This document shows positions 37,001-61,300 of a stretch of DNA of 64,000 nucleotides, in pieces. A program made the translations under genes and the position numbers. The first letter of the stretch is position 1, and each line of letters opens with the position of its first letter. This stretch comes from Eledone cirrhosa (lineage: Eukaryota). The notes beneath the pieces are model-generated. The model had not been told where the DNA came from, made no database searches, and saw only the letters and a list, made by a program, of their open reading frames with translations. The stretch is from NCBI GenBank assembly GCA_964016885.1, contig OZ024745.1, positions 31,124,001 to 31,188,000 on the forward strand, written 5' to 3'.

Positions 37001-40000
37001 CTGTAATAAAAAAAAAAAAGAAAATGTATTAAAGATATCTGAAGTGCAAAATTCAAAATGAAAAACATTTGTTTATTTAAATTGACTTTACGTTAAAAAT
37101 GAATAATTTTATATACACATTTCTGCTATGAACATGGATTTATGCCAAAAGAAAAACATATATGTATATATAGCATTAATGTTTATTTCAATGTATGTCA
37201 CCATTTATTTCATACATTCTACTGTGTTTAAACTATTTTTTATATATTATTGCTCTGAAATTCTATTTTATTGAGTTCTTTGCAAAACTCTTCACAAAGC
37301 ATTATTCTTGCTTAATCAACAAAATATTTTTCTTTTATCAGTTCACAGTGTGAAGTAGTAATGCTGATGCCATGATAATTACACCCAGTGCATCCTGTAA
37401 AGTAGTAGTAGCAGAGCTATGATAAAACACTCCTGGCACACACTGTGAAGTGGTTGGCATTAAGAAGAACATCCAGCCACAGAAACACTGCCTATAATTT
37501 CTTAAATAATCAAGAATAAAAGAAATTTAAAAGTTAAAATTTAAAGAAATATAAATTTACTTTGGTTCAGTCTCTTCAACAAGTTCTGGTACAATGGACA
37601 CAAGAGCAATATAAATAAAGCCCCCAGATGTAAATGGCAAAATCCAAGCCGTCTTCATACCTGTTTAAACGAAAAAAGAAAAGAAAGGAAAATGTATTAT
37701 AGATGCAATCTTCCTAATGAAACAACTACAGAAGTACTTAGCAAGGAATAAGTTACTAGACATAGCATTTGTCTATCAGGGAAGGAAGTTTGACAGGAGG
37801 ACATGCTCTATGATCTGGTGGGTGCTAAGGAAGATAGGTGTAGATAGGTAACTTGATAGAGGTGGGCAAGCCATGTATAGAGAGGCAGTCAGCAATATGC
37901 AAGTAAAAAAGTAGTTTAATAATGAACTTAGTGTGTAGGTAGGGATCAATCAAAGTCCACTCCTCAGCCCCTTGGTATCTATTATAGTCCTTCAGGCCAA
38001 ATCAGAAGAGTTTAAGATTGGTTGTCCATGGGAACTTATATATGCAGATGACAGATGATGCCTTGCTCAAGGACAAATTCACGACCTTACAATCATGAGC
38101 TAAACAACTAACCCACACATCAACTGGTGCTCAATTTATAATTTAACTGGAGTAATGACTGTTAAATGAAATATTACAACACTTATCATAATGATAGTAT
38201 GGTGAACTAAAAAGGTTTTATTTCTCTCACTGAAAATATCAATTGTTTTTCATTCATTCATGTAAGTTACCTGCTTCTTCAATGGAATCAGCACTCAATG
38301 CTGTTAACGTACCCAGCAGTCCACCTGAGGCTGTTAAGATCTAAAAGTAAAAATAATAGGAATAGATAATCATTAGAAATGAATAACACTGATTACATGT
38401 TTTGGATATAGATTTAAAGAGGAGGAATATAATTACTTGATTTGACCCTCAAATGCATGCTGGGTATTTTATATCATCAATACCCAGAGTGGTGAAAAAC
38501 AAAATCAATATCTTGCAGGATTTGATTCTAGAGTGTAAAAGGACTAAACACTGAAAAATATGCTGTAAAACAGTAGAATCCATGGAAACTAGTAATGATC
38601 TGCATCAGCAAAAAATTATACAAATAATATAAACAATGGAATAAACTGTATGTTGTAAAGAAGTCTATTATTTTAGGTAGAACCCTTTGCTGAATGGAGA
38701 TATGGAGTTTGATGCAGCACTATTTCTGTCAAGACACAGCCATAATAATGATATTCTTGGGGCATGTTTCAATCTGCAATCCCTCAGTTTCCAAACGATC
38801 TGGTACAAGAAAGAAGAGTTTTCTTACTTTTTCAATTTGAATGAGTGTAGATGCTTGCAATATCAACTTTTGAATATATTTAATATAATAACATTTTAAG
38901 GTGTTATAGATGATCTTTGGAAAGGCACAATCCTTAAGCATACAGTTTGAGGATTTATGCAATTATACATTGGCTGTTGGGGAGGGGTTGGTCAACACAC
39001 TCACACATGCTTTGATGTCCAAGCCGTGCTAGAATGAAAAGCCAAGTACATCCAACAATATTCTGTCAGACACACCACACTCTTTTCAAGTCCACCTTCA
39101 TGACCTGATACTTGCTCTCTCATGGTAGGATGAACCCTTCCTTGGCAAACAGTGTGTAGCTTGTCCTCCCTTTCATCTTATACCCTTGGTCTTGGACACA
39201 TCACCTTAGGGTTGTAATGAGGTAGGACTGGTAGGTCATGATAAAACTCATTCCCAGCCCATTATGTAAAGTGGTCATACTGGTGCCATGATAAAAAGTA
39301 CTCAGTCCACCCTATAAGATAGTAGAGCTAGTGTCCTGATGAAAATCACCCAGTCAACACTGTAAGGTGGTAGGGATAGTAACATAACAAAAAGTACCCA
39401 GTACTCACTGTATGGTTGTAGTGCTGGAGCTATGATAAAATGCTCCAAATACATGCTGTAAAGTAATTGGCATTAGGAAGAACATCCAATCATGGAAACT
39501 AACCACAAAATGGATTGTATGACCTAACCAGCCTAACCACAGAATATGACAACCCCCTAACCCAAGCAAGCATGGAAAATAGATGTTAAACAGTGGTGGT
39601 GGTGATGATGGTAAACCTACATTTAGAAACTCCTGGAAAAAGTTCAACATTATAGATGCTGCAGATAATATAGCTGAGTCATGAGATTGAAGTGTAGTCC
39701 TCAGCTATGAATGGCGTTTGGAAAAAGAAAGATATTGTGACATTGGCAAATGATGTAGGATCTGAAGAAGTTATACAGGATGATGTGATTGAGTTGCTAG
39801 TGTCCCATAGAGAAAGTTTGTCTAATGAGAAGCTAATACTTATAGAACAAGAACAAGCAGCAATGTGAGAGGAGAATACAGGAATTAACCCTTTAGCATT
39901 TACATTACTCTATATATACTATTATATTTTCATGATTAATTATCTCACATAATATCAAATCTATGAGATTTTGATATTATTTATTTTGAGAACAATACCT

Positions 40001-43000
40001 TAATATCAGTATGAGTGGCCAGTTACAGCCAGTTTGATCAGAGAGAGGTGAGAAAATTCTGGCCGGATATGGCCGGTTTAAATGCTAAAGGGTTAAACCA
40101 ACTCTGTTTAAATTGACAGCAAAGAATATTACTAAAGGGTTGGGATTTATTAATGAGTGTCTGCAAGTTTTTGCTGATAACAATCGTAATTGTGAACATA
40201 CTATAAAAATTACAAGAGGAATTTGTATTGAGCTCAGTTTCTACACTAAGCTGTACTAACAAATTCAAATCAGTTTTTTATTCCTGCCGATGCAGATATT
40301 GATGATGATGAACTATAGACCAGAAGATAGGGTCTGTCCTCCTTCTAGTAACCCGCTCCCTTAACATAGCAGTGAACATCCTATTATCATATTACGATTC
40401 TTATTTCTTCATTAATGTATTTCTCACCAAATGTTTTAAAACACACTTATTTTACTTTCTATATTTAGAAATTGTTCTTTTTATGCATAAAAATGGTTGT
40501 ATTGTTTGTTTCTTTTTTTTTTTTTTTTGTAAAATTCCATTGGAGTGCATCTCACTTTATGACATGAAATTCAATTGGAAAGTAAGCTTTGTGTAATGGA
40601 ATTCCATGTTATGGTAAGATCTTCAGAAACACAATACATCTGTAATGTAAAGGATTCTTGTATTGTGTTTTATACACAGAATAGAAAATGTGGCATAGGA
40701 AGAAAAACTGTAGAAATATATAATAATCACCTGCTGAATAAATGACCCTAGTAAGATAATTGAACAAAACAAAATAATAATAATAATAATTAAGAGAGAA
40801 TGCACACAATTGAAAATGAAATTTCTTGTCCGAAAGAAAAGGTTTTTATAAATATTGTGGATAAAAAAATGAAATATCAACATTTTTTTTTTAAGTAGAA
40901 AAAATATACGTGAGGTCTGTGAAGATTTTGAAATCAGTGCAAAACAGATCCAATGGTTGTTTTTCCTTGATCAATAAAAATAAGTGCATTGCTATTTCAA
41001 AAGCTTAACACATTCTCTTGTACATATATAATAAATAAACGCAACCATGCCTCTCCTGGTCTTGATGGTGTTACGTACCTGCTTCTTAAACGTGGTGGGT
41101 ACTTCCTTCTACACCAGTTATCACGCTTCTTCCAATTCTGTCTGAACAACAGTGCTACTCCAGAACAGTGGAAAACTGCCAGTGTAATTCCTCTGTTCAA
41201 AAAGGGTGACCGCACATCACCTGTGAACTATCGTCCAGTCAGTCTTACTAGTTGCATCGCCAAACTGATGGAATCCTGTGTCAGAGAAACACTTTGGAAC
41301 TTTTGGAGCTCTCACAGTCTTATCCGGCCTTCGCAATTTGGATTTATCCCCAACTCCAGCTGCTGTGATCAACTTATAGAGTTTCTTGAGGACATCACCC
41401 GGATCACTGATGGCGGCTCATGGGTGGATGTTGTTTACCTTGACTTTGCGAAGGCCTTCAATTCTGTGCCGCACAAAAGGCTTATGGCAAAACTCTCTGC
41501 AATGGGTGTGAAGGATGATCTTTTTAACTGGTTGAAGTCCTTCATTCTCAGTCGAAGAGAGGTAGTCACGGTTCTGGGACAGCATTCCTCACCATATGAG
41601 ATGTCATCTGGTGTACCTCAGGGATCTGTTCTTGGCCCCCTTTTGTTTGTGGCATATATTAATGACATAGATGCCAACTTAAGGAATGCCACAGTACTAA
41701 AGTACGCAGACGACATCAAGCTGTACCTTGAGATAAAAAGGACAGATCCTGAACACTATAGATCTTGCTTGCAGTCTGACCTGGACACAATGCAACAGTG
41801 GATCTCAGACTGGCAACTCAAGCTAGCTGTGGACAAGTGCACCACCATGCATTTTGGGAGTAAAAACCCAGCGTCCACATACTCCCTCCACAGCACTAAT
41901 ATCAAGAAGTCTTCCTGTGAACGTGACCTGGGCATTACGGTCAGCAGCGATTTGCGTTGGACGAGGCACGTCTCTAAAATTGTCAAGAGGGCCGAGGGTG
42001 TCTTAGCATCACTCAGCAAGACCTTTGTCAGCCGCTCTCCAGATATCTATTTAAGGCTGTATACAGCTATGGTGCGACCACACTTAGAATTTGCATCACC
42101 AGTCTGGAACCCCTATCTTGCTCAGGACATTGACCGCCTGGAAACTGTTCAGAGACGTGCAACCAAGCGAATACCCTCCATCAGGCATCTACCATACTCT
42201 GATCGCCTTGCTTCCCTGGGCATGGATTCTTTGAAGCTCCGACGCCTGGCAACTGACTTGGTAAACACCCACAAAATTGTTAACCATGTTGCCAACAACA
42301 ACCCTGAGTGCCTTTTCGATTTCCATGTGTCTAACACACGTGGACATGCCCACAAAGTAAGAAAACAGCACAGTTCCCATGACTTTCGGAAACATTTTTT
42401 CACGCTCAGAGTTGCTGAAGCATGGAACAAACTACCTGCATCAGTTGTTAGCTGTCGAGACACTGCATCCTTTAAGGCCTCCATGCTTCCCGAGATCCGC
42501 CAACACTACAGCTAACACATACAAACATGTACTTCCCTGGCATTTGTGTATTATTCTATGTACTATATTGACGAGTTGTAGTGCACCTGAGCACTTTACA
42601 CAATAATTTCATTATTATTATTATTATTATAATAATACAGCCTTTAGAAATGAAACTTAAAAAGCAGAAGGCAAATTCAGATATGTTACCACAGTAGAAA
42701 ATAATTTTAGAGATGATGCAGTAGTTAAAATTATAACAGATCAATATTTATATTTTGTCTTGGATAAGGATAGAATTACTAGTCATTTATTGCTTTATAA
42801 AACTATTTTAAGGAAGACTTCTTTCTTTTCTTTACCTTTTCATCAGCATATATGAGATATGTTCTTAAAGATTCTCTATTTGGAAAATAATTAGTATCTG
42901 TTATTGTTTAACCTCTCTGATCCTGCAAATCTATGAACAAAAGCAGCCCCAAGCCAATATGTTGTTTAACCCTTTAGCATTTACATTACTCTATATTTAC

Positions 43001-46000
43001 TATTGTATTTTTGCAGTAAAAGCTTTACCTCACATAATTATCTCACATAATATCAAATCTACGAGATTTTGATATTGTTTATTTTGAGAACAATACCATA
43101 ACATTGGTATGAGTGGCTGGTTACAGCTGGTTTGAACAGAAAAAGGTGAGGGAATTCTGGCCGGATATGGCCGGTTTAAATGCTAAAGAGTTAACCTGTT
43201 ACAAGAGTTTAGAACTGAAAATCTCAGGAGAGAACACCAGCAATATTGATATGTAGTTCATCTCCCTTCATTAATATATAAGAGGAGTTTAAGATGGTGG
43301 TTGGAAACAGAGTTGGTGTTTAAAATGACAAAGTTCACACCAAACAATCATTAAGCTAACTATTACTATAGATTATGTGGTTAAGTGAGAAACTGTCTTT
43401 CTCCATGTGACAGCAACTGATGAGATGAGCAGTTGCTGAAATATCACATTTGATATGTGTAGTTTATTTAATGTTTGCCTCAGTGTTTAAATACCTTGAT
43501 TAGACGAACTAGAAAATTTTACCATCAAAGTCCATGTGAATTTATCTATTAGACTTGTCTACTGACAGAAATAAATGATGGCTATAAACAAAAGTGTGTA
43601 GAAGTTCTTAATAATAAGGTATTCCAGTTATTCCACCTTTCTCAGCTGCTGCCTCCATCTTCACCTCATCCCTTAAAGTTTCTGCCTCTACTTCCACTCC
43701 ACCACTCACCTCTTCACCCTTTATTGAACCCATCCTCACCCATTTTCCCTGGCTTCTCATGTTTGCCACCCACCACTTTTCCCAAATTTACACCAATGAC
43801 AGCAACCTCCCCTCCTTAAACTGTTCTTCATTTGTCATCCTCTCCTCACTCACTCAATCCTTTCTTTCATCCAATACCTCAGTTGCCTACATTTTCACTT
43901 CCTTAACTCTACAGATTCATTAACTTCTCTCCTTAACAGCATCCCTGCAAATACTGCTTCCAGCCCTTTCCACATCACCCCAGTCCTCTTGCACATATCT
44001 TTCTTACACCCACCTAAATCCTCAACAACCAACCTCCCCTGCATACTTCGACTCCATCCCACTCATGCAGAGTTCTCCATTCAAAATCTTCACCCAGTTT
44101 TCTGCCCAGTTAAAAAAAGTCCCTATGCTTGGGTTTTAAGGGCATAAAAATGAAGTTGTCCCCAGACATCACCAGACCTCTGCATTCCACTACCACATGC
44201 CATCCCATATTCATGATACCAACCAAGGCCTTTGTTTGCTCCCTGGTCCATCCCACCTCCTCTTTATCCTTGACATCAAGTCCTTATACATATGAGAGCC
44301 ATTGTTTTCCAAGACTTTATCACTTAATACTAGACTGCTAAGACCTGCACCTCTGCTGTTCTTTCTCTTTTTGTGTATATGTATGTATGTGATATAAATT
44401 GATATAAGTAAACTGTATGTGTGCTTTTGTAAGCAGAATTGTGTTTGTTGATGGTAGACTAAATTACGTGTGCATCCAAGTGAAGTAAGAATAATGTTGA
44501 TAGGGAAGATGGTTGTGTAAACATAGCATAATTTCACAATATATCGTATAGTTCTTAAGGAGAATAAAATATAAGAGAAATATACATGTTGAATGTATAA
44601 GGCAGGAAGTAGAAGTATAGATACAGCTGCATGTGGTTTACAAAGAGATGAGTTAGTCAGCCAAGACAACAGTGTGGTGAGGAGGTGGAAGGTAGTCCAG
44701 CTTCAGGTAGTGCGTATATGTAATAACACAAACACACATATATTACATTAACTATGTGACACCCACTGCTGAAGCAACACTGCCAACATCATCACTTCCA
44801 CTAACACCACTGAAATGTAAAACATTCTCATTTAGTCTATTCAAGCATTAAATTAATAGCATTTATCATCCTGTGTTGCTTCCCTGTGGCTTTTTTGTTT
44901 ACTGTTATATATTGTTTTTGTTCTTACATTGTGTGTAACGTAATAATCCATAAGTAGTGAAAGAACTCTATATGAGTAGAAGAACCATATATTTACATAA
45001 TACTGATATACAATATTATGCTGGCTACAACCTGGTTTCACATTTAAGCATATCATTTTATTACAGATAATACACCCCAATATATACTCTGCCTTCCTTA
45101 GATGTTAATATTTATAAATTGGAGATGGTAAAAATGTGAGAAAAATGAGAGAAGACAAGAATTGCTTAAAATTAGTGAGCTGAAAATGGTAATCCTTATG
45201 CGTATGGTATACTTAAAAACATGTACAAATAATTAAGACAATATTACTTCAAGCATATATATTCTAATTATGAATTAATTAATTGCTAAGATATTGAAAG
45301 TGATATTAAACATTACAAACATCAGTTTGAGACAGAAAAAGAAAATATACAGAACCTATATTTAAATTCTAAAAGATTAAATACATTGTTTTAAATCTGG
45401 GGTCTCCAACATATGGCCCATGAGCCGCATGCACCATGAAAACCACTTTCCTATGGCCCACAGCAGAATAGTTTTGTTTTCTGTTTTAATATTCAGATTA
45501 CAATATATTGCAATTTGCCAATGGAATATAATCAAATGAAAAAAAAGAATTTAACAAAAGTGAAAACGGAAAATTTGAAAGAGAAAATGCCCCACCCTCC
45601 CAATATTTTGTACTAATTCACATATCCCACTATCATATGTGTATTATCTTGAAAAATAAATAGCATCCTATGAACTGTATTGTAGATTAACATTATAACT
45701 GGTGGAAATCACACTATCACCTCTCATCTTACTTTTGGTCCACTGTGCCACTCCTCCAGGGTGTAATGACCCTTTTGAGCCCTTGAGGTTGAGGCCCCTG
45801 GTTTAAATAGACATTATATTTGTTGATAAGTGATTTATAAAGAATAGCATATTAATGTTCTCACCTGTGCTTTTGCAGCTTTCCACCTGTCAAAACCAGA
45901 ACGCAGCAATATGGCAAAATCCCCAACTTCATGAGGGATTTCATGTACTAGGATTGCAAATGTCGTTATAATTCCGACCTGAATAGAAAGGTTAAAATGT

Positions 46001-49000
46001 TTCTATTTCTTCTTTTAAATATTAATTTTTTAAAAAAGTATGAAAATTTTGATATAAACAAAATTCAAGTCGCTGAATATAAAAGAGTCAATCATAAATA
46101 ATAATTTCAATGTAACATTTTCATGATTTGAAATATAAGATATACCTTTTGTTATAATAAACATATAATTTGAGACTTACTTTAAAAAGTAAAGAAAATA
46201 GCTATACAACTGGTGAAAAGTTGGGTTTGACCTGACTATTTTTTCTCTTAGATCTGACAATGAAAGAATACCAACCTTTTGTCAACACAGAAATAAACTC
46301 TGTTGTGTAATCAATTTGCTTGCTTCCCACAGATTGTATAAAATTGTATAAACATTAGAAAAGGTGTAGCTTCCATTTCAAATTATCCAAAACCAATGTA
46401 CAATGCATTATGAATTCATTAATGTCTTTATAGTACATATAATTTTGTGCATCATTTTATACTAGACCGGAAAATACGGGCGCATGTGTATTAATATTCT
46501 TAAATAATAATAAACCTGGAAAAGTACAGGACAAGTAGAATTAACTCTTAAAATATTGAAGCTGGAATTGGAATTTGCTGAATTCAATGTACAGTAAAAT
46601 TAGCAATGCCAAGAGATAATAAGAAATAATAATGAATTAGGGGATTTATTAGATATTAAGTCATCAGTTTGCCTAAGTCAGCAATCACCATTTTGCCAAC
46701 CAAATGCAATTAATGTCATCAATCTTTTGTACATAAATTGTCAGTTCATTTAAGTTGTCACTTTTTTTGTCCCTTTAGTGGGTTAATTATACTGTATTAC
46801 TTTAAAAATAGACATTAAAAATTAATTGAAATTAATAGTAAAAAGTAATAAGCTAAATTTTGCATAAATTGTCATCATATTAAAATTATTAATCTAATTT
46901 CATTTTAAAAAAAGTTAAGCCAAAATTTGTCAAGATCGAATTACAGTTGACTCTCCCTAATTGTCAGCGCCATTTTTGGCCCAACTTTTATTTTTTGTGA
47001 CTCTCCCTAATTGTCAGTCATTTTTACAGTTCCTTTGAGTGACAATTAGAGATAGTCAACTGTATTTCAAAAAGAAAATTTAGTGATCAAGTGCGATATC
47101 ATTCTGATTGATAATCTGGATTACTGTTCCTTTCTTATGAGGAAAGCAGAGACTATCTTTTACAAATTAGCACCAAAGATTAACTAGGCCATTCCTAATG
47201 AATCAAGGTGATTTCTAGACCGTTTCTAATTATTTAATTAATAATTAAAGTAAAAAATTATCTTGGTTGTCTTTAGGTCATTCTTGTGTTATTCTAAATC
47301 TATCCATGAAAGAGCTAGGAATGACCATTCCACATGCCAGTGCCGAAATACTGGCACAGAAATGCCTGCACCGAAACGTCCTGTTCCATGCCATCTTAAC
47401 AACCTTCACCTCCTTGTGATTAAGTGTGATGTCATAGGCTTATTATTGTACATTTAATTCATCAAATTCAAATTCCAGCTTCAATATTTTAAGAGTTAAT
47501 TCTACTTGTCCTGTACTTTTCCAGGTTTATTATTATTTAAGAATATTAATACACATGCGCCTGTATTTTTCAGTCTAGTCCCCCTTTTTTTAAGGCATTG
47601 CAGCAAATTATTTTATTTAAATTACCTTTACCATTTGCTAAGGCATTTACAATCCTTTTTTCATCAATAAAAATTAATTTTTCATTTCAATATTTCTATA
47701 AAATCCAAAATATTAAAATTGAAAAGATTTTTGTATAATATAATCAATAGAGACATTTGCCTTTTCTGAACACCCTTACTACAAGCCTTCAGGTGTGCCC
47801 ATAGAGACAAAGCTATAATTGACTATACTCTAATGATCAATTTAGAGTTTAACTTAACAAGTGAAGTTATTAAAGATGCTAGAAAAAAAAGCAATTAAAA
47901 TAAGTGAGTCAAAAATAAATAAAATTAAGTAGTAAATAAATAAAATGCCAATAAACAGTGAGCTCAAATTCAACAATAATTTGTCCAGAATTAGCATTTG
48001 GTCCAAAATAAAATTATGTAGTCGAAAATCAGCATTTAGTCCAAAATAATCAGCAAGTAGTCCAAAACAAAATGATGTAGTCCAGAATTAACAGTAGTCC
48101 TAATTATAAGTTGGTAGTCCAAGATCAATAGTCCAAAATCAAAAATCTAAATTTTTTCCATAAACAATACAACCACATTAGGTAACTTAGGAGGAAATTT
48201 ATTGTGCCTTTTTTTGATAATGTTGTCACTAATTTCATCCCAATTTTCAGCACCACTTTTTACCAGACAAGTATAATGGCCTGCCGTAGATGATACTCCT
48301 TCATGAAGAATAGCAGCTTTTAATGTGAAATGTGTGCCATATATTTGCTGCTTTTTTGAGCTAAAGTTCATAATATCACAATTAATTCTTTGTTCTCCTT
48401 CATTATTAATAAAAAATCAACTAATTGAGATGACAAGATATTTGAAATCGTTAGTAAATTCAATTCTTGAAGTTATTTGATGCTCAGTATTTTCAGAACA
48501 AGTATCACAGTATTTAGTCAAAGTATTTGTTGTTGAAAGTAGAGATTTAAATTGTTGTGTGCCATTAATAGGATTTAATATCAAATCCTCTTTTATTTGA
48601 AATGGAAGTTCAGATTCTATACCACATCCAGGTCTTGAATTACAATTGCAAACATTTAAAGCTTGGCAATTTGTTTGATGCAATCGGATGCATCTAGTAT
48701 GATCAGTTTGAATAAATTGAAGTTTTTCTCTAAATACCAAGTGCAAATGTAGAGAGAGTTCTTTCCAAAATTCATGAGCACATTGCTGATTTCCATCATG
48801 AAATCTTCCTCCAATTCTTCTTCTTAAGTTAGCGACATTATTATGATTATTAAAAATGATATTGCTTAATTCTTGATGAATTCCATTCATGTTGTTAAAA
48901 TTATGCAAATACTCTACAAATTCAGGCAATTGATTCAGTGATTGCACAACTGAATTTGTAAAACAAGCATTTCTTTGGTTGATCAATTGATGTTTAGGGA

Positions 49001-52000
49001 TTAAAGTTTGGCTGTTTTGATTTCTTTTCTTCTTTTTGGCAGGTTGGTTTGAATTTTCTTCCAAATTAAGTCTTTTAGTTCTTTTCTTGGGCATGCTAGA
49101 AGCATTTGCCAAGCAAGGATGCTTTTTCCTGCAAGGTGGCAATGGAGGCAAATCTGCTCTTCCAGTACTAGCCCGTAGTTTGTTGTACTCTTCCCATGCA
49201 GATTTGTCAACCATGATCAATGATCTTGGATCGAAGTCACAGAGATACACATTGAAAAGTTTTCTGGCTCTTGAAAGAGCCACATAAGCTTGACCATCAG
49301 AAAATATCTGATTTCCTAAATCAGCAATTATTCCATCCATAGAAATTCCTTGTGATTTGTGAATTGTTATAGAGTAAGAAAGAGACAATGGAAATTGTGT
49401 TCTGGTGATAAAAACACCAGGAGAAATTTCATAGTCTGCTTGAACTCTTCCAATGGAAATGGGTTTGTCCTTTTTGGTATCAAAAGACACCAAAATTTTG
49501 TCAACATTGCTTCCATTCCCAATTAATTCAATAACTGTTCCTTGATCTACATCAATGTTTCGTTTCAACATCACTCTTGCTCCAATTCCAACATTTAGCA
49601 AAGTTTCTAGTCCAGCAGTATCAGAAGTTTTCTTGCTTTTGCCTTTTTCAACATTTTTCTTTTTTCTTCCATTTACTTGTCTCATACCAGAATCTTTTGC
49701 AGCAAGTTTCACTGCATTTATGTTGCATTTTTTAATCATTTCATTATTCAACTCAACAACAGCTTCATTCAAAGGTAAAATGCATACACATTTTAATTCA
49801 GGAATAGAATACAATTCAATCAATGTTTTAGCAATTTCTTCAACAGATGCTTTTCTATCAGGAAATAGGCATCTTTTTTGAAGAATGCTAATATCAGAGT
49901 CTGATGGGGAACCAATCCTAATTCTTCCCAAAATATCAACATAGTTGTCTTTGTCTTCTTTTTGTCTCATATTAATGGTTAGCTCATCATATTGAAAGTA
50001 TTTCCTCAATGAATGCCCACTAATGCCAATTTCTGTTCTTTTGGCATCATATGATGAACTTCTAGAAAATACTGGTTTTTCATTTACAGGTGGCAATTGC
50101 ATCAAATCACCAAACAAAAGAAGATTCATTTTTCCAAAAGGATATGCCATTTTTTGGGGATCTCCAAAAATTTCATCAAGCCTTTTGTCACACAACTCGA
50201 TTTCTATGGCACCAATCTTTTCAATATTGACAAATTTCGATTCAGCTTATCGAGTTTATATTCAAAATTTAAAAAAGTTATGATGAGCCAAAGTCAATGA
50301 GGGGCCTTATCCTCCACTACTTGACCACACATATTTTAGCGTAACCTTTTTTCTACTGACCCAAATTTCAATTTTCTTATACCAAAATGTAGCCTGGGAT
50401 GAGTCCATTCTAGTGCAAAAAACCTGATCAAATTTGGTTGAGAATGAATTAGTGACAAGTCTTAGAAGTGGCTGTCGTTGGGAAAAAGTTGACCTTAAGA
50501 ATATCATTCACACGCTACTGTGTGTGAATGATAGGTTTAGATGTAATTTTGCACATATAAACTTGCACATCTGATGAGATGTCAAGGCAGATTCAGCTGG
50601 TCATTATGATTGTACCCTGAGCTGATCAATATTGAAACAATTGTAATAAGACAAGTTTATATATATATGGTGCAACATTGACTTTACTTCAGCTTACTTT
50701 TATTTATATTCTGCACACCACAGCAGCCTTAACCCTGGAATACAACCCAACACAAAGTGGACGTGTAGGTGCCACGGAAAAAAGCACCCAGCACTCACTG
50801 TAAATGAGGTTGGTGTTAGGAAGGGCATCCAGCTGTAGAAATCAAGCCAGAATCAGTTCCTATATGAGCAAGACAAGGTCAGCCAACCGGACACTGCCCA
50901 CAACAGGACAACCCGACTAACCCATGCTAGTGTGGAAGAACGGACGTAAAACGGTGATGATGATGATGATATATGTGTGTGTGTACGCGTGCACGTGTGT
51001 GTGTATTCAATGGGCTTCCACACAGTTTTCATATACCAAATTCTACTCACAAGGCATTAGTCAATCAAAAACTATGGTAGAAGAGCCTTGCTCGAAGTGT
51101 AGCTCAGTGGAATCATATGGTGTACAACATGACTGAAGCAAACGCCATAGCCACAATGAAATGCCTACTCCCATACTTAGATATTTTGATATAAAATATT
51201 AAGACTAAAATATTAATTGTTTCTACAATAGGCACAAGGCCAGCAATTATCCCAGTGTATTACTGGTACTTTATTTTATCGACCCCCGTTAGGATGAAAG
51301 GCAAAGTTAACCTCGACGGGATTTGAACTCAGAATGGCAAGGGCCGTAACTCTATGCATCAAAGCATGGTGTCCGACCCTCTACCAATACTGCCAGTTCA
51401 CCGCCCTTTAAGATTAAAATATTAATGTAAGCTGAAAAGTTTCCTGAAGATGTTTGAAAAAAAAACTGATTTGATATCATTTAGGATGGAAAATAAACAG
51501 AAAACAATCATCAACAAATAATTGTGAATTTGTGGTAAAAATAGAAGTAAAGGATAGAAATATCATTTAGTTAATAGACTATGCTTAAACAGACATGATA
51601 ATGCATGATCAATTTTGACATTTCCCAACCACTTTAAATGAATGGTGTATATAGTTTGTGTAAGAAATCATTAATAACAATGACAGAGGAGCTTAAAACA
51701 CTGAACAGGCAGCTAGTTTTAAAAGCAGCTATGGTTAATTGCTAAGCAGAACAATGCAATACAGTCTTATCTCTGTCATAAGAAGTAAAAATAATACATC
51801 ATGAAAATAAAATAAGATTTATGCCATAGAGAGTATTTGGTAGTAAACTGGCAAAAAAAATCAGAAAGTGCATTAAAAGGACCTAATGAATACAAGATTA
51901 TTTATGAGAAAGGTGGTGGGTGAAAATGGCTAAGATGGTTGTGGGTGAACAGGTCTGCTTTGAATATGTGCCTACAGGTTGTGGATAAATGGAACTTGTC

Positions 52001-52358: not shown

Positions 52359-55300
52359 CAAATCGTATATGGGAACTGAAAGATAAAAAGACGCCATACA
52401 AAATTAAATGAGACATCCTGAATAAGTTATGTCCTTACATTAAAAGAACAAAGAGGTGTTCGCTTTGCCTAAGTGAAAAATTAAGGATATTACAGAGGCT
52501 CAAATCCTTTGATTAATACTTAAACACTAAATATGAATTATTTAGAGGATGCCTACATATAAGATAAAAAATATCCTCTCAGTATGGAAGAATACTAACC
52601 CAGACACACAAAACACCACAATCTTACACCGACCATAGTCCACTAAATTGGTCACAGGTCTACACATACATCACACTGCACCGAAACACAGTTAAATACA
52701 ATAAGCTATATAAATAATATACACATAAATAACACATATACCTTTAACAAAGCACATATCACACTCCACCTATATTAATAATATACACATAAATACACAC
52801 ACACAAACATATACATATTTAACAATATCCTACACCTTAAAAGAAACATGCATTCACTACAATAATCCATATAATTATACATAGGAAAACACAACATACA
52901 CACAATACAGACACTTTAACAATTACAACCATATTCAAATATATAAACTGACAAACAGGAGTTACTCCCCTGAATAACAAAAACACCAAATTTATTGTTA
53001 CATTATTATTACCTCCCTTGCATTTGACGAGATCTCGTGTATGAAATAACGTCGGCCATCTTGTATTGCCTGAAAGATAATTAACACTAGCAGATATACC
53101 GTCTCTATGATCTATGCAAGAGTAAGCATTGAAACCTTAGGTAGCATGCATCTGTGTTGAGATTTTATTTATAATAATTGTTTCTACTTTGGGAACTAGG
53201 CCAGCAATTACCCCAGTGCCTTACTGGTGCTTTATTTTATTGACCCCGCAAGGATGAAAGGTAAAGCTAACCCCCTACGGGATTGAACTAAGAACGTAAA
53301 GGGCCATAACTCTTTGCTGCGAAGCAAGGTGTCTGATGCTCTACCGATATTGCCAATCCACCATAACAATACACTCTAGCTCTGTACTTAACATAGAGAG
53401 CTCTTTTTCCTTTATCTAGTCTACAGAAACTATTGATATTACACCTCCCCCACACACACGTATATATATCAATGAAATGTACATTATTCATACTTCAGCT
53501 TCACCAATTGCCAGACATTTAATGAATAATTTGCTTAACTTAGAAACTTTAAAAAAAGCAGGTTAAAGAAGATGAGAAATATAAACAAAAGCACCCCCTC
53601 CCCATCCATAAAAAAAAAACAATAACAAAAAATATATATATTTTCTAAAATGTCATAAAAGCAATATTTTTTTTTTTTTTACAGCGTTGGAAATTTGTCT
53701 GTTTCTTATTTGAAAGTGTCTTTTCTCATTACTCTGCTTGTCTTGTCTTGGTAATTAAGGAAATATTTCAAATGAAGGCAACAGGTATGTTTAAGTTACA
53801 GTGTAAGCATTTAAGAAGTATGTGACAGTTATAGCGTCTGCTATAGTGGTTAAGAAACACTAGTGGATTAAGGGAAGATGTATCAAGATGATGAGGATAT
53901 ATAAAACAAACAAAAAACTTATTACCCTCTCTCTGTATATGTGCATGTATGTATACACATATAAGGGAAGTCTCTCTCTGTATATGTGCATGTATGTATA
54001 CACATATAAGGGAAGTATGTTTAGAAAACGACGTGTGGTGTTTGAAAATTACAAATAGAAGGCTTCCCTGTAATGTTTTGACTAAATAAAATAATCTAAT
54101 AATAATTGTTTCTACTTTTGGCACAAGGCCAGCAATTACCCAGTGTATTACTGGTACTTTATTTTATCGACCCTGTAAGGATGAAAGGCAAAGTTAACCT
54201 TGGAGGGATTTGAACTCAGAATGGCAAGGGCCGTAACTCTATGCGTCAAAGCATGGCGTTCGATCCTCTACCGATTCTACCAATCCACCGCCCTTCTAAT
54301 CTAGTAATAATGGGGCATATAAACCCACTGAAAAGAAAAAAATGGGCATCAGTGTACATGGAAGTCAAACCCACACCTCTTGTTTGACGAGTAGTGTGGG
54401 TTCGACTCCCATGTGTGCCAAGGCCCATCTAAGTGTTGATGTTTTTATTATTATTATTATATATATATAAACAACAATATATGGAGGAAAAGGCAATACA
54501 TTTAAAAACAAGATTTATTTCTTACACAGTGTTTCATCTAAAGTACAATTACAATATAACAGGTTGATACATATGTGTTTGCATATATATTACAATGCTC
54601 ATGTACTTAAGAATCTTCAGAGAAGAAACATTTTTGTCTTTAAGGATGTTGATGGAGGGAAAGTCCAATCTGTATGACAGTGAAGCAAAGCTACCCATTA
54701 ATGGTATAATTATTCCTTCAGAGGAATGCTTAGAGGAATATATATATACATTGTCATTACCTGCTATGATGTCTTCTTTTCAAGTCCAATACCAGAGAGG
54801 TAAGACATTGTATATTTAACTGCAAGAATTATGCTTGAATAATATGTTCCAAACAAATAAAATCTGTCAGTTTTGAAGTATACAAAGCATGTAAACAAAC
54901 ATATGGAGCAGATCAACTCCTCTGAAAATATGACTTAATATTTTAAGACAGATGATATTTAGTGATATAATTATATACATACCTTATTGCATACCAGAAA
55001 ACTTCCACCAACTGCAAGCCCATGAGTGAAATTATCTACAATGTTGGCAAGAAGATTTAAATAACCACTAATCTGAAAAATACAAAAACAAAAATAGAAA
55101 TATTATGTTAGTGAAAAGCATATATATAATCTATATTGTAACAAGAGCCATCTTTGTCTGACTATCACAAGAATGCTGACAATGTAACTAAATTGTTCTA
55201 TTTTGCTGTTTTCATTTATGTCAGAGTTCAATGTTATATATACCAAAAGTATTATTTGTCTATTTTTCTAGCTTTTTTGTATCTCCCCTCTATGCACCCC

Positions 55301-58300
55301 CTCTCTCTCTATATATATTTGCTATCCTCACCATCATTACACCCTATGTTAATGTCCTCAGTGGCTACTCTCTCCATCCCTGTGCATCCCCAACTCCACT
55401 AGTACACCATAGCTATTCTCACCATCACTATATCCCACTTTTAAAAATCCTGACACACCTGTTACTCCTCCTATCCCTACTACTCATCACCTGTCAAATC
55501 TGCCACACCTGTAAAACATTATACTTTTCTTCCCTCTCTTTCTTGTTCCCCCTCATCTCACCAAGTGGAGAGGGCTCTCCATTTGGGTCAATAACCAACA
55601 ACCTCTCTAGTGCTGGTGCCACAAAAATGCAACCAGTACACTCTAAGGTGGTTGGCGATAAGAAGAGCACCCCATTTGAGAAACTATGCCAAAAGGGGTT
55701 GGGAAGACCCTTCAGTTATGTTAACAGTGTGACAACCTCTCTAGTATCAGTGATCTACACAATAAACACATCCAATACACAATGTAATGTTGTTGGTAAT
55801 AGGAAGGGAATCCAGCTGTAGAAAGCTTACCAAATGAAGGGTAGGGAGGACCCTTCAGTTGTGTAAAAAACATGACAATCTCTCTACTGCTGATGTCAGG
55901 ATAAAATGCACTTCATAGAGCGTGGGATCGCATGTAAGTGAGATATGGACCCCTGGCCCATCTCAGGGGTCAGTAGCTTCACTTCAGTATTGACTTGGTC
56001 TGTATAAACCCATCCAATCCTTGCTACCAGGAAAACAGACGGGAAATAATGATGATAATGACACACACTCAAATATATGTATGTGTGTCATTAATTAATT
56101 ATTTATATATATATATATCATCATCATTGTTTAACGTCTATCTTCCACGCTAGCATGGGTTAGACGGGAATTGTCCCATTTGAGGCAAGATTGGTCAGGT
56201 AACTGTGTCACGCTCGTATAGGACTATCTGGCAGGTTTTCTGCAGCTGGATGCCCTTCCTAACACCAACCACATTTACAGTGGACTGGGAGCTTTTTACC
56301 GTGTTACCTACACGACCACATTAGAGCGTGGACTGTGTGTTTTTTTTGTTTATATATATATAATAATAATAATAATGAAATTATTGTGTAAAGTGCTCAG
56401 GTGCACTACAACTCGTCAAAGGTGTAGGTATAGTACATAGAATAATATACAAACGACAGGGAAGTGAATAGTGTATGAGTCATGATATACATGAATCTCG
56501 GGTAGCATGGAGGTTTTAAAGGATGCAGTGTCTCAACAGCTAACAACTGATGCAGGTAGTTTGTTCCATGCTTCAGCAACTCTGAGTGTGAAAAAATATT
56601 TCCGAAAGTCATGGGAACTGTGCTGTTTTCTGACTTTGTGGGCATGTCCACGTGTGTTAGACACATGGAAATCAAAAAGGTACTCAGGGTTGTTGTTGGC
56701 AAGATGGTTAACAATTTTGTGGGTGTTTACCAAGTCAGTTGCCAGGCGTCGGAGCTTCAATGTATCCATGCCCAGGGAAGCAAGGCGTTCAGAGTATGGA
56801 GGGTATTCGCTTCATTGCACGTCTCTGAACAGTTTCCAGTCAGTCAATGTTCTGAGCAAGATAGGGTTTCTAGACTGGTGATGCAAATTCTAAGTGTGGC
56901 CGCACTATAGCCATGTACAGCCTTAAATAGATATCTGGAGAGCGGCTGACAAAGGTCTTGCTGAGTGATGCTAAGACACCCTCAGCCCTCTTGACAATTT
57001 TAGAGACGTGCTTCGTCCAATGCAAATCGCTGTTGTCCGGTCACGTTCACAAGAAGACTTCTTGATATTAGTGCTGTGGAGGGAGTATGTGGACGCTGGG
57101 TTTTTACTCCCAAAATGCATGGTGGTGCACTTGTCCACAGCTAGCTTGAGTTGCCAGTCTGAGATCCATTGTTGCATTGTGTCCAGGTCAGACTGCAAGC
57201 AAGATCTATAGTGTTCAGGATCTGTCCTTTTTATCTCAAGGTACAGCTTGATGTCATCTGCGTACTTTAGTACTGTGACATTCTTTAAATTGGCATCTAT
57301 ATCATTAATATATGCCACAAACAAAAGGGGGCCAAGAACAGATCCCTGTGGTACACCAGATGACATCTCATATGGTGAGGAATGCTGTCCTAGAACTGTG
57401 ACTACCTCTCTTCGACTGAGAATGAAGGACTTCAACCAGTTAAAAAGATCATCCTTCACACCCATTGCAGAGAGATTTGCCATAAGCCTTTTGTGTGGCA
57501 CAGAATTGAAAGCTTTCGCAAAGTCAAGGTAAACAACATCCACCCATGAGCCGCCATCAGTGATCCAGGTGATGTCTTCAAGAAACTCGATAAGTTGATC
57601 ACAGCAGCTGGAGTTGGGGATAAATCCAAATTGCGAGGGCCGGATAAGACTGTGAAAGTTCCAGAAGTTCCAAAGTATTTCTCTGACACAGGATTCCATC
57701 AGTTTGGCAATGCAACTAGTAAGACTGACTGGACGATAGTTCACAGGTGATGTGCGGTCACCCTTTTTGAACAGAGGAATGACACTGGCAGTTTTCCACT
57801 GTTCTGGAGTAGCACCGTTGTTCAGACAGAATTGGAAGAAGTGTGATAGCTGGTGCAGAAGGAAGTACCCACCACGTTTAAGAAGCAGGTACATAACACC
57901 ATCAAGACCAGGAGAGGCATAGTTGCATTTATTTTTTAGGTGACGTCGCAGCATTGCAGGTGTAAATTCCATGGTTGTAATAGAGTCCGGTGTCATAGGT
58001 GGTGGAGATGGTACACTCTGGTCTTCAATAGTGAAAATGCCTGCATAGCAATCAGCAATTAGCTCTGCGCATTCCTTGGGGTCGTCAGTAACCTGGCTTG
58101 TGTGGGGATTGCGAAGAGGACCAACTGGAGAGTGAGGCCTCTGCTTTGAGTGAACATACTTCCAGAACACCTTACTGTCAGGGCTGGTTGTTATACGCTG
58201 CTCAAATTGAAGCACTGCCTTTTTTGTCACCTGTTTGAGGTGGTTGGACAATTTATTTCGCCTCTTCCTATTGATGTCTGATTTGTGCAGTTTGTACTCA

Positions 58301-61300
58301 CGTTCAGCATTGCGACGTTCTTTTCTGGCAAGAGATGGACTGCTGCAGTCTCCCAAATTGCACTTTTGGGATGTTTTTTTCTGCTTACGTGGCACCGATG
58401 CTGCACATGCTGTCCATATTGAGCTCAGGATGTTCTGGAGTACAGTGTTGACATCTCCAGAGTCGTAGAACTCAAGCCAGTTTGGCCGTTGTAACTCGGT
58501 GCAGTAACAGTTCGAGTCTGCTTTATTCCAGTCAAAGTGAGCAGTTTGGAGATGATTGTGGTTCTTGTTACTGCCCATGAGGGATAGATTGGCAATGATC
58601 ATAGCATGATCAGAGTCACCTAAAGGTTCCTCAGTAGTAACACTAATGACCGTTTCAGGAGTAGTGGTGAAGAGTAGGTCCAAAGTGTTGTCACCTCTTG
58701 CTGGGGAGGTGACTACTTGGGACCAATTCGAGTCCCGCACTAGCTCAAGGAAGTCATTTGCACTTGGCAGCCATTGAAAGGTTTCCCAGTCAATCTCAGG
58801 GTGATTGAAGTCTCCTGCAATAAAAACATAAGTGGCTATTTTCCTGGCAGCAGCTCTGAGGATATCACAAAGTTGAATGTCCTGATGGTAATTTGGGGGA
58901 CGGTAAATGACTCCAAGTAGCAGTGTTGACATGGTCATACGTATATCGCAGAAAAAAACTTCCTGCTGTGATTGGTTCAAATCAACACAAGGAATTGCCG
59001 ACAAATTTGACCGAACGTAGACCATTACACCACCACCACCACGATTAATGCGGTCTTTACGAAACAGGTTGTAGCCAGTTATGCTGAATACCCCATCACT
59101 GAGTAAGGGATGTGCCCAAGTTTCCGTGACTGTAATGAAGTCAGGGTTGATACTTTTGACGTAGGAGTCAAAAAGATGAATCTTATTGCATAGACTACGT
59201 GCATTCAAGGACAACAATTTGTACCTTGATTCCAGTATATGATTATGTGCAGGGGATGGCAGGTTGTTCTGATTTAGTTTCCCAGAGTTTTTTCAGTTTT
59301 TTTATTGTCAGTTGCTGTGGGTACAGTGTTTTCAGACCAGCTGGTATTTCTTTTCCATGTTTCACCAGCCTTAACAAACTTCCATATCTGCCCATCATCA
59401 CGTAGGCTGAAGCTTTCATGTTCTGCAGAGCTGCGGTTTAAGGAAGCTGCAGCATCCAACTTTGGGCGGACATCAGGTGGAAGACCAAGGCATGTTCGGA
59501 AAGCAATCCGACTTTCACGCCTAGCTTTATCAGAGGCTACAAGGTATGAACGTGCCTCAGTTGAGTTTGAGAAAGACAGTCTAATTAGCCTGGGTTTCGG
59601 ACCTGGTCGGCCAAGGCATAGAGCACCCTTTGCGGGAGCACAGCCCAAGTCTTTGGATGAACTGGCAGCAAATGCCTGAAGATCAGCTATGTCTTCTGGT
59701 ACACCAATGGCAATTACTTCGTGGTTTGCAGTGGCATTCAGTGGCATTCTCAATGCGTCTAGGTTCAACATGAGATGCGCGGAGATTTTTTAACAAGGCA
59801 CTCCGGTAAGATCCCTCTTTATATGTGAAGTCAAAGTGGTCGTGGAGGTGCCACGGCAAAAAAGCACCCAGCCTACACTGTAAGGTGGACGTGGAGGTGC
59901 CACAGCAAAAAAGCTCCCAGCACTCACTGTAAATGAGGTTGGTGTTAGGAAGGGCATCCAGCTGTAGAAATCAAGCCAGAATCAGTTCCTGTATGAGACA
60001 AGATCAGTCGACCGAACCCGCAACAGGACAACCCGTCTAACCCATGCTAGCGTGGAAGAACGGACGTAAAATGGTGATGATGTGATGATATATACAGAAA
60101 CTGTCAACAACAGACTCAACAAGCTAATTACCGTTAAACTAACTACAAGCAGTAAACCAAACGTCTGACAATTCATCCAACCTTTATTAGCAGAGAAGAT
60201 AGATGTTGAATGATAATAATAATTGTTTCTACTTTTGGCAGAAAGCCAGCAATTATCCCAGTGCATTACTGGTACTTTATTTTATCGACCCCGTATGGAT
60301 GAAAGGCAAAGTTAGCCTCAGAGGGATTTGAACTCAGATCATAAAGGGGCGTAACTCTATGCTGCAAAGCATGGCATCCGACTTTCTACCGATACTGCCA
60401 ATCCACTGCCCTGATAATAATAATTGTTTCTACTTTTGGCACCAGGCCAGCAATTATCCCAGTGCATTACTGGTACTTTATTTTATCGACCCCGTAAGGA
60501 TGAAAAGCAAAGTTAGCCTCAGAGGGATTTGAACTCAGATCATAAAGGGAGGTAACTCTATAATGATGATGATACATACATATACACATACATACACACA
60601 CATACATATATACATACATACACACAGATACATACGCATACACTCATACACACATTATATTGTATACTGGATGTATGAAAACAAATGAACGACATTGCAG
60701 TAGTGATATTTGTACTTTAAGAATCATCATCATCATCATCATTTCATTTTACGTCCACTTTTCCCTGCTTGCAAGGGTGGTATTAAACTATCTCTTGCTC
60801 ACCAACCTTTATAGATCTAGTTTTTTGTACAGGCTCCACATGATTTGTGCAGGCCACATCATGATTTTGTATATGATCTAATTCTTCTATGTGCCTGTCT
60901 GTAGACGAATTTCTGGTTTCTTTCTCTGAGTAATCATGCTTTCTTTCTTTGGTTTCTTCCAATTCCTGCAAAACAAATGTAATAACAATTAACAGACTTA
61001 CAAACAAGAGCATACCTAAAAGAGGAAAAATTAATTCACAGAAAATCAATACCAGATGAGGATCCATCAACATTGGTGTGATCAACTGAAGCCTTTGTTC
61101 TCTTGTTTTGTTATCATTAACATAAGTTTGATGTGTTTGCAAGTTACTAACATCTATAAGGAACTGGATTTGGCATTATCTTTTAGTATTTTATTATTTC
61201 TTTCAAAATTTCATATGTATATATAATGAAGGAAGTGTGGTAAGGAACCAGATGGACCATAACGCACCAGAAATAGCTGTCAGGGTTAAACATTTTCCTA

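Follow-up and report, generated by a model that had tools for sequence, protein, structure and literature searches.

Both the association of the UCH domain with HLE2-group Helitrons and the idea of a Helitron-borne deubiquitinase are already in print. OTU domains were reported in Helentrons by Thomas et al. in 2014 (PMC4067079), and Erven et al. (2022) found that the VTD domains of zebrafish Helitrons are active K48/K63 deubiquitinases, recorded OTU beside or in place of VTD, and proposed a shield from proteasomal degradation, for which different deubiquitinase classes can serve; the available text of that paper does not name USP as a Helitron domain (PMC9741609). HELIANO (2024) counts UCH and Ulp1 among 20 stably captured domains and reports UCH almost exclusively from HLE2, with enrichment in subgroups c and d, which come mostly from lungfish and axolotl; in the same words as its preprint it places UCH among 17 domains 'encoded in different ORFs' (open reading frames), and a catalytic analysis of UCH was not found in the part of its text that was available (PMC11417382). 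As for element ends, the proto-Helentron of Phytophthora has 5' TT, 3' CTAG and insertion between A and T (PMC4067079), to which HELIANO added a 5' stem-loop and 12-nt repeats, with nothing similar in 404 other species (PMC11417382). The locus described here lies in a stretch of 64,000 nucleotides of the octopod Eledone cirrhosa (assembly GCA_964016885.1, contig OZ024745.1, positions 31,124,001 to 31,188,000), termed the window, and is almost certainly an HLE2-group Helitron copy that is dead and internally deleted and has an in-frame C-terminal USP (C19) domain. A first-pass annotation of the window knew of no described fusion of this protease family; the HELIANO listing of UCH as a stable HLE2 domain speaks against an undescribed UCH-Helitron link, although it concerns different ORFs (PMC11417382).

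The protein is encoded by a minus-strand frame (50195-48147) broken by one internal TGA, as the first-pass annotation had described, and the catalytic Cys and His codons and the Asp codon of WDEISD are where it had put them (Table 1). With X at the stop, the last 282 amino acids align with the full length of the Pfam UCH model (E 1.5e-14, 54.6 bits, cut-off 23.9), which bears out the claim of a whole USP-like domain; the upstream part matches PIF1, Herpes_Helicase and UvrD_C_2, each below its Pfam cut-off. Helicase homology begins at about 50188 (KRLDEIF), and the codons before that point derive from non-coding 5' sequence that a deletion joined to the frame. Three lesions of the frame had been proposed, and all three are present. 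The stop is indeed a single-base change private to the window copy; an origin by CGA>TGA was rejected, because AGA stands at this position in 18 of 20 aligned copies (with AAA in one and TGA in the window copy alone), and the stop therefore arose by AGA>TGA and not by a CpG change. The gap in the helicase, at the LCNGVIG region, is a short in-frame deletion of 21 bp, and its reading as a family-wide feature was likewise rejected, since all 21 bases are present in 17 of 19 other copies and part of them in one. The N-terminus is missing through internal deletion and not truncation, both element ends being retained. The window copy is thus a dead, ordinary insertion that makes no working protein.

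A DNA search of the 3.0-Gb genome, in which the best 40 of 97 candidates were scored, gave at least 113 matches, the long ones mostly 91-96% identical to the window element; there are 143 candidates for the 5' end alone and 227 for the 3' part. A 5' end is held by 21 of the 25 loci examined and reads A|TC in 19 of these 21 (one being an internal repeat of the end), with the left repeat about 25 nt inside it, and the 23 loci examined for 3' ends gave 19 rows representing 18 distinct copies, 17 of which end in CTAG and 17 of which are followed by T. Most insertion flanks are TA-rich. Duplication of a TA target site was ruled out by a sister-family copy that splits a tandem-repeat unit as TATA|TATA with zero added bases, and by AA|TC and CTAG|TC junctions. 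In 14 of 19 other copies the 5' 450 bp run straight into mid-helicase sequence at one shared deletion junction (three have more helicase, and two could not be scored for the junction), and the window copy is without another 100 bp ending at this junction. Three longer copies (L036, L037, L038) contain a Rep region with EYQxRGxPHxH and YVTxYQTK, interrupted by frameshifts and stops, and L036 matches the DUF6570 region of an intact sister element at 49%. Among 20 copies the ratio of nonsynonymous to synonymous polymorphism (pN/pS) is 1.63 in the helicase and 1.03 in the USP, stops occur at or above the neutral rate, and the mean divergence from the column majority is 1.9%; the window family decays neutrally. 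All 20 copies retain the catalytic Cys, and 17 of them the His. A TAA at 48359, present in 8 of 20 copies, may be a founder mutation, but it lies next to an A run and its distribution differs from that of other shared variants. The earlier description as a decayed rolling-circle element with TC...CTAG ends is supported, and the family has dozens of copies; the parent element presumably moved by rolling-circle transposition, and the 4-kb derivative would have been mobilised in trans through its ends. The 1.1-kb inverted-repeat unit at the 3' end was also sought as a free miniature inverted-repeat transposable element, and no match bounded by both arms was found among the 40 scored of 227 candidates.

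The same genome also has intact relatives. Searched with a full-length homologue, it gave 25 matches (22 scored of 5404 candidates), and of 15 loci fetched, seven have unbroken frames of 2230-2245 codons in the order DUF6570, Helitron_like_N, REP_ORF2-G2P, PIF1 and UCH. Pfam cut-offs are exceeded by all four domains of the intact frame; DUF6570 scores E 2.2e-17 and UCH 39.6 bits against a cut-off of 23.9. The upstream HUH Rep that the first-pass annotation had proposed to look for is present in these frames as in the long copies of the window family (EYQxRGxPHxH and YxTxYxxK). The intact sister frame is 46% identical to the window protein, and four intact elements are 99.0-99.4% identical to one another over about 12.9 kb, with a fifth at 94-99%; this sister family is young. 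A third family (L031) is 53% identical to the window protein and has two copies 99.4% identical over 11.2 kb. All three families have the same arrangement of TC, 5' hairpin, 10-12-bp inverted pair (12 bp in the window and L031 families, 10 bp in the intact sister family, L021), CGCATTTTTC-like run and CTAG, and each has an inverted duplicate of its own 3' end (137, 190 and 221 bp), CTAG included, 0.75-1.1 kb inside the element (the sister examples lie at G000:C5 ~5366.5-5379.4 kb and G000:C13 ~18885-18896 kb). These duplicates are 95-99% identical within an element and have patchy similarity only between families; within a family the arms seem to undergo homogenisation, and they possibly form a single-strand panhandle or serve as a second terminator. 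Between the window family and L031 the nonsynonymous (dN) and synonymous (dS) distances are 0.49 and 2.39 in the USP and 0.30 and 2.44 in the helicase, with dS between families near or at saturation, and the USP is under purifying selection between families.

Two further observations concern the L031 family. Several of its copies (G000:C13:18892742-18893584, C10:33079323-33080165, C12:22466704-22467543) share the same open stretch of 507-508 codons over the USP, which suggests that they belong to a lineage amplified not long ago and have an upstream stop in common. One L031-family copy is bordered by the same 11-bp stretch in its 3' flank (L070, G000:C10) and in its 5' flank (L069), where the stretch is shifted by a few bases; it was not seen at other copies.

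That the fusion is a chance juxtaposition, an assembly chimera, a domesticated host gene or an endogenous virus is hardly credible. Giant viruses do encode both PIF1-like helicases and USPs; the dozens of dispersed copies with common ends, the neutral decay with many stops and the Helitron Rep upstream in long copies all speak against such readings, and of 304 viral loci, the 80 that were kept match in the helicase only. A viral origin was rejected, the USP profile having no match in these 80 loci.

The USP domain of the intact sister family (L021:6943-7800, G000:C5), 42-44% identical to that of the window, was modelled with AlphaFold from a 26-row alignment. The model (pLDDT 90.5) is a 286-aa domain with no substrate-binding extension and matches USP2 (Z 26.4, rmsd 2.2, 259 residues aligned) and USP21 (E 4.9e-20, TM 0.80); the USPs of giant viruses match it too, no better than cellular USPs do. 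Judged by sequence position, the catalytic Cys is present in 27 of 27 aligned domains and the His and Asp in 26 of 27 (the remaining row ends before them), the oxyanion Asn and the finger cysteines are conserved, and the triad is invariant at about 20% overall identity. From sequence and model, the domain is probably an active deubiquitinase in intact copies. It shares with cellular USPs (C19: USP2, USP21, USP12/46) the palm-thumb-fingers fold, the Cys/His/Asp triad, the oxyanion Asn and the four-Cys fingers, and differs in being about 20% identical to all of them, in its minimal 286-aa core and in having QQCAHDF for QQDAxEF. None of the cellular USPs stands out as the closest, and an insensitive search for short stand-alone relatives gave one match of 365 candidates, an Octopus bimaculoides fragment with 70% identity.

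The fusion is widespread. A search for longer homologues found 270 proteins, of which 120 were listed, and in 24 of 24 long homologues chosen by a precomputed UCH tag the UCH domain lies C-terminal to PIF1 in one chain; hosts include the ants Linepithema and Nylanderia, the sponge Dysidea, Rhodnius, Artemia, the sturgeon Acipenser and nematodes of the genus Caenorhabditis. In a FastTree tree of 123 helicase regions (P0122, which has no helicase, was left out), the window falls in an 87-row clade with support 99; the trees hold search hits only, and this clade is set against Helentron-like rows that bear an AP endonuclease (EN), with no labelled HLE1 references. By profiles made for this analysis, the tails of the 87 rows are a whole or partial USP in 39, USP+USP in two, USP+OTU in four, OTU in 24, OTU+OTU in five, VTD in one, Ulp1 in one (triad present by eye), unassigned and weakly Ulp1-like in two, and shorter than 130 aa in nine. 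A USP, OTU, VTD or Ulp1 domain therefore follows the helicase in 76 of 87 rows, and none of the 87 matches the EN profile. One strong USP row, P0087, lies outside the clade on a long branch. Outside the clade as well, a distant Helitron-like locus from a metagenome (L085:11437-14499) runs on in frame from the helicase into an OTU domain, and other N-terminal domains in the HLE2 set are a PHD finger (P0047) and STPR repeats (P0095, P0106). Element ends in other species were sought at 27 metagenome loci, which gave OTU-tailed relatives with no definable ends.

In all six proteins with a second protease behind a USP, the first USP is without the catalytic Cys and His (Cys is replaced by Ser or Gly, or absent in one), and the distal USP or OTU retains its catalytic motifs. 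The dead USP fold is retained whole between the helicase and the working USP or OTU in these proteins (P0004, P0005, P0006, P0008, P0010, P0011), where it may bind ubiquitin. The retained dead folds, together with the Asp-to-Cys change in the QQDA box and the neutral decay of the window family, could be taken to mean that the element carries the domain as a passenger it once captured, or uses it only to bind ubiquitin. This is quite improbable, as the triad is invariant at such low identity and purifying selection acts between families, and among full-length domains dead USPs occur where a protease with catalytic residues comes after them.

A maximum-likelihood tree (IQ-TREE) of a hand-picked 33-row subset, rooted on four EN rows, places USP on the deepest branches, VTD as sister to a USP row (100/100), Ulp1 as sister to another (100/99) and OTU in three places, one of which, the pair of dead USP and OTU, is nested among USP rows (100/98). 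On this tree the tail was replaced at least five times (OTU three times, VTD, Ulp1). A single OTU clade is rejected (p-AU 3e-6 in the approximately unbiased test), as is a single USP clade, in a test that was not blind, the groups having been named from the first tree. The swaps bear on the possibility that the tail is a self-processing protease, which would cut the 2230-aa polyprotein or release itself like viral papain-like proteases. Its fold class is that of coronavirus PLpro (Z ~13), and proteolytic processing has been proposed for Helentron OTUs (PMC4067079); nonetheless the domain is far closer to cellular USPs (Z 26), with fingers intact, and the differing specificities of OTU, VTD and Ulp1 would call for new cleavage sites at each swap, which makes self-processing improbable.

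The observations on both the USP and the slot it occupies are best explained, with moderate confidence, by a transposase chain (DUF6570, HUH Rep, PIF1) that ends in a predicted active USP, which would likely protect the transposase in cis from ubiquitylation and destruction. Of the roles that the first-pass annotation had suggested for the USP, stabilising the transposase resembles the Erven et al. proposal for Helitron VTDs (PMC9741609), and action on H2A/H2B or PCNA falls under the main rival below. A 5'-phosphotyrosine bond ties HUH transposases covalently to DNA (PMC5876387), and covalently trapped topoisomerases are cleared by SUMO, then RNF4 ubiquitylation, then the proteasome (PMC7673754). 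By analogy, a Helitron transposase would be joined covalently to DNA in the same manner, the host would attack the DNA-bound protein through SUMO, ubiquitin and the proteasome, and the tethered protease would strip ubiquitin or SUMO marks from it, buying the helicase time to unwind about 12 kb. Protection in cis would explain the fusion, the interchangeability of folds including Ulp1, and why the earlier active site decayed after a second had been gained, and a SUMO-protease type (Ulp1) in the same slot would fit a SUMO-ubiquitin attack. There is about an even chance that self-protection is the main role of the USP tail.

The main rival is an action on host proteins near the donor or target site (ubiquitylated H2A/H2B, PCNA, repair or silencing factors), by which the USP would open chromatin or steer repair synthesis and the fusion would serve as delivery. 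Fusion to a DNA-bound enzyme and the basic clusters of the helicase-USP linker, which we take to be NLS-like (resembling nuclear localization signals), agree with such a role; the fold is common to USP1, USP16 and Ubp8, as it is to all USPs, and chromatin signalling was suggested for Helentron OTUs by Thomas et al. (PMC4067079). Four unrelated, interchangeable folds suit a generic job by proximity better than one host substrate, however, and the domain has no substrate-binding extension, so that an action on host substrates is judged rather unlikely.

Several points weigh against protection in cis as well. The crosslink argument is an analogy with topoisomerases only. The USP is less constrained than the helicase (dN/dS ~0.20 versus 0.12), and in one close pair its dN is 0.10 against a dS of 0.18 (ratio 0.56), although the USP dS of that pair is below the dS of Rep and helicase, which suggests recombination. 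The Asp of the QQDA box is replaced by Cys in 6 of 27 rows, all three local families included, and this could weaken ubiquitin binding or alter the modifier recognised. VTD and Ulp1 occupy the tail slot in one protein each (P0071, P0028). The homologue query held part of the USP and 120 of 270 matches were listed, so USP is over-represented and the ancestral state possibly biased. In the EN-bearing group 17 rows have EN only, and many Helitrons are without a protease tail, and a tail is therefore not needed for rolling-circle transposition. A wider account is offered tentatively and has the odds against it: that a widespread animal clade of EN-less HLE2 elements with proto-Helentron-type ends has an obligatory C-terminal slot for a de-modifying protease, ancestrally USP and refilled through dead-USP intermediates by OTU, herpes-like VTD or a SUMO protease, because hosts fight these transposons by recognising the transposase covalently attached to DNA as a crosslink, to be destroyed through SUMO, ubiquitin and the proteasome.

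The repeated refilling of one slot by unrelated ubiquitin or SUMO proteases brings the scattered notes on Helitron proteases into one testable pattern and implies that host pressure is steady and acts on proteins, a layer of defence against transposons that has been little studied next to RNA silencing. The near-identical natural full-length frames let enzyme activity and the effect on transposition be tested with no need to rebuild an ancestor, and if the crosslink-defence reading is true, the young intact family would be a natural, unreconstructed tool to test it.

Table 1. Features of the window element and of the flanking host gene (positions in the window)
Feature	Position	Strand	Remarks
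Whole non-autonomous HLE2-type element	46462..50531	-	4070 bp; 5'-TC ... CTAG-3', between A and T; copy similarity stops at both points
5' end	50504..50531	-	TC, then hairpin with ~10-bp stem; layout also seen in two sister families
Left 12-bp subterminal inverted repeat	50495..50506	-	One mismatch in this copy; partner 46492-46503
Non-coding 5' segment	50189..50494	-	This copy lacks ~100 bp and the shared deletion junction (at 50188/50187)
C-terminal half of RepHel PIF1-like helicase	49173..50188	-	Private 21-bp in-frame deletion after 49542
Linker	48996..49172	-	Two basic clusters (49071-49091, 49023-49040); basic linkers in relatives too
USP/C19 domain	48147..48995	-	Asn-x4-Cys box (Cys 48963-48965), QQCAHEF, four-Cys fingers
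USP/C19 domain, further sites	His 48276-48278; Asp 48225-48227; private TGA 48417-48419; natural stop 48147-48149	-	
Degenerate short tandem repeats 3' of stop	47970..48140	-	Number varies between copies
Internal inverted copy of the element's own 3' end	47443..47579	+	137 bp, 95% identical to terminal arm, ends CTAG
Terminal arm	46461..46597	-	Right 12-bp inverted repeat 46492-46503; next a GC-rich stretch and an ATTTT-type run; CTAG 46465-46462
Host ZIP zinc-transporter exon upstream of element	54980..55072	-	Pfam Zip E 0.0011
Host ZIP zinc-transporter exon downstream of element	45865..45978	-	Pfam Zip E 5e-10, above cut-off

In the window element the 12-bp repeat recurs inverted about 30 nt before the 3' end, and the last 137 bp recur inverted about 1 kb inside (Table 1). 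Small direct (20 bp) and inverted (29 bp) repeats lie between the two 3' arms at 46938-47068. A further Pfam Zip exon on the same strand lies at 37560-37652; Zip exons of one strand on both sides place the element in an intron of a ZIP transporter gene, as the first-pass annotation had it, and the name SLC39A13 given to the gene is presumed from its motifs. A Pfam Zip search of the genome, with 75 of 179,780 candidates scored, did not return the short exons of the window. Introns of the same gene also contain copies of non-LTR (long terminal repeat) retrotransposons at 40971-42515 (+) and 56971-59292 (-), with reverse-transcriptase frames of 514 codons in the first and 773 in the second, whose start is endonuclease-like; their assignment to a family is presumptive. 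A 171-codon frame just upstream of the retrotransposon pol frame (59274-59789, -) is probably ORF1. A short interspersed repeat has two copies in the window (51210-51402, 53171-53362) and is apparently inserted in the inverted arms of several copies of the window Helitron family elsewhere.

The features shared with HLE2 are a HUH Rep and PIF1 in one transposase (the Rep being deleted in the window copy itself), DUF6570, short asymmetric inverted repeats and 5' hairpins. At the position of the 3' hairpin of canonical Helitron2 elements, after the right repeat, only 2-5-bp stems are predicted or visible. Canonical Helitron2 elements insert at T|T or T|C and have the left repeat 0-2 bp from the end, neither of which is seen in the window family, and Helentrons have the AP endonuclease fused after the helicase, where the USP stands here. 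The 5'-TC, the CTRR-3' end and the insertion between A and T with no duplication are those of HLE1, from which the family differs in its inverted repeats, 5' hairpin and DUF6570. HLE1-style terminal signals can thus sit on an HLE2 transposase in an animal, and annotation tools based on ends would misfile such elements. HLE2-reverse/FoHeli elements, like the proto-Helentron, have an HLE2-type transposase with no EN. FoHeli elements end in ATTTT or CTCCTGT and the window family in CTAG (PMC5148889), and an accessory SET frame was not seen among the ORFs of one sister element.

No Helitron USP is named in the available texts of PMC6431247, PMC13085455, PMC12001565 and PMC8788227, and neither a same-chain Helitron USP nor such ends were found in the literature, although Repbase, Dfam, reviews, paper figures or bioRxiv supplements may hold them. 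What is added here, as far as that search goes, is the same-chain USP, the swap history and its dead intermediates, the occurrence in an animal of proto-Helentron-like ends, and the young intact family. The resemblance to the proto-Helentron lies in an HLE2-type RepHel with no EN, the 3' CTAG, the A|T insertion with no duplication and a 5' stem-loop upstream of a 12-nt left inverted repeat; the window family differs in its 5' TC (19 of 21 ends) for TT, its animal host, its C-terminal USP and its internal inverted 3' copy (PMC4067079, PMC11417382). The VTD and OTU Helentrons likewise have a deubiquitinase domain inside the RepHel frame, but bear EN and, in the mapped examples, have VTD upstream of Rep, whereas here the protease takes the place of EN (PMC9741609). 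HELIANO subgroups c and d share a DUF6570 HLE2 transposase with no EN and a stable UCH link; unlike in that account, the UCH domain here is the C-terminus of the transposase chain itself, in invertebrates as well as a fish, and the published statement of UCH in a separate ORF is corrected to that extent (PMC11417382).

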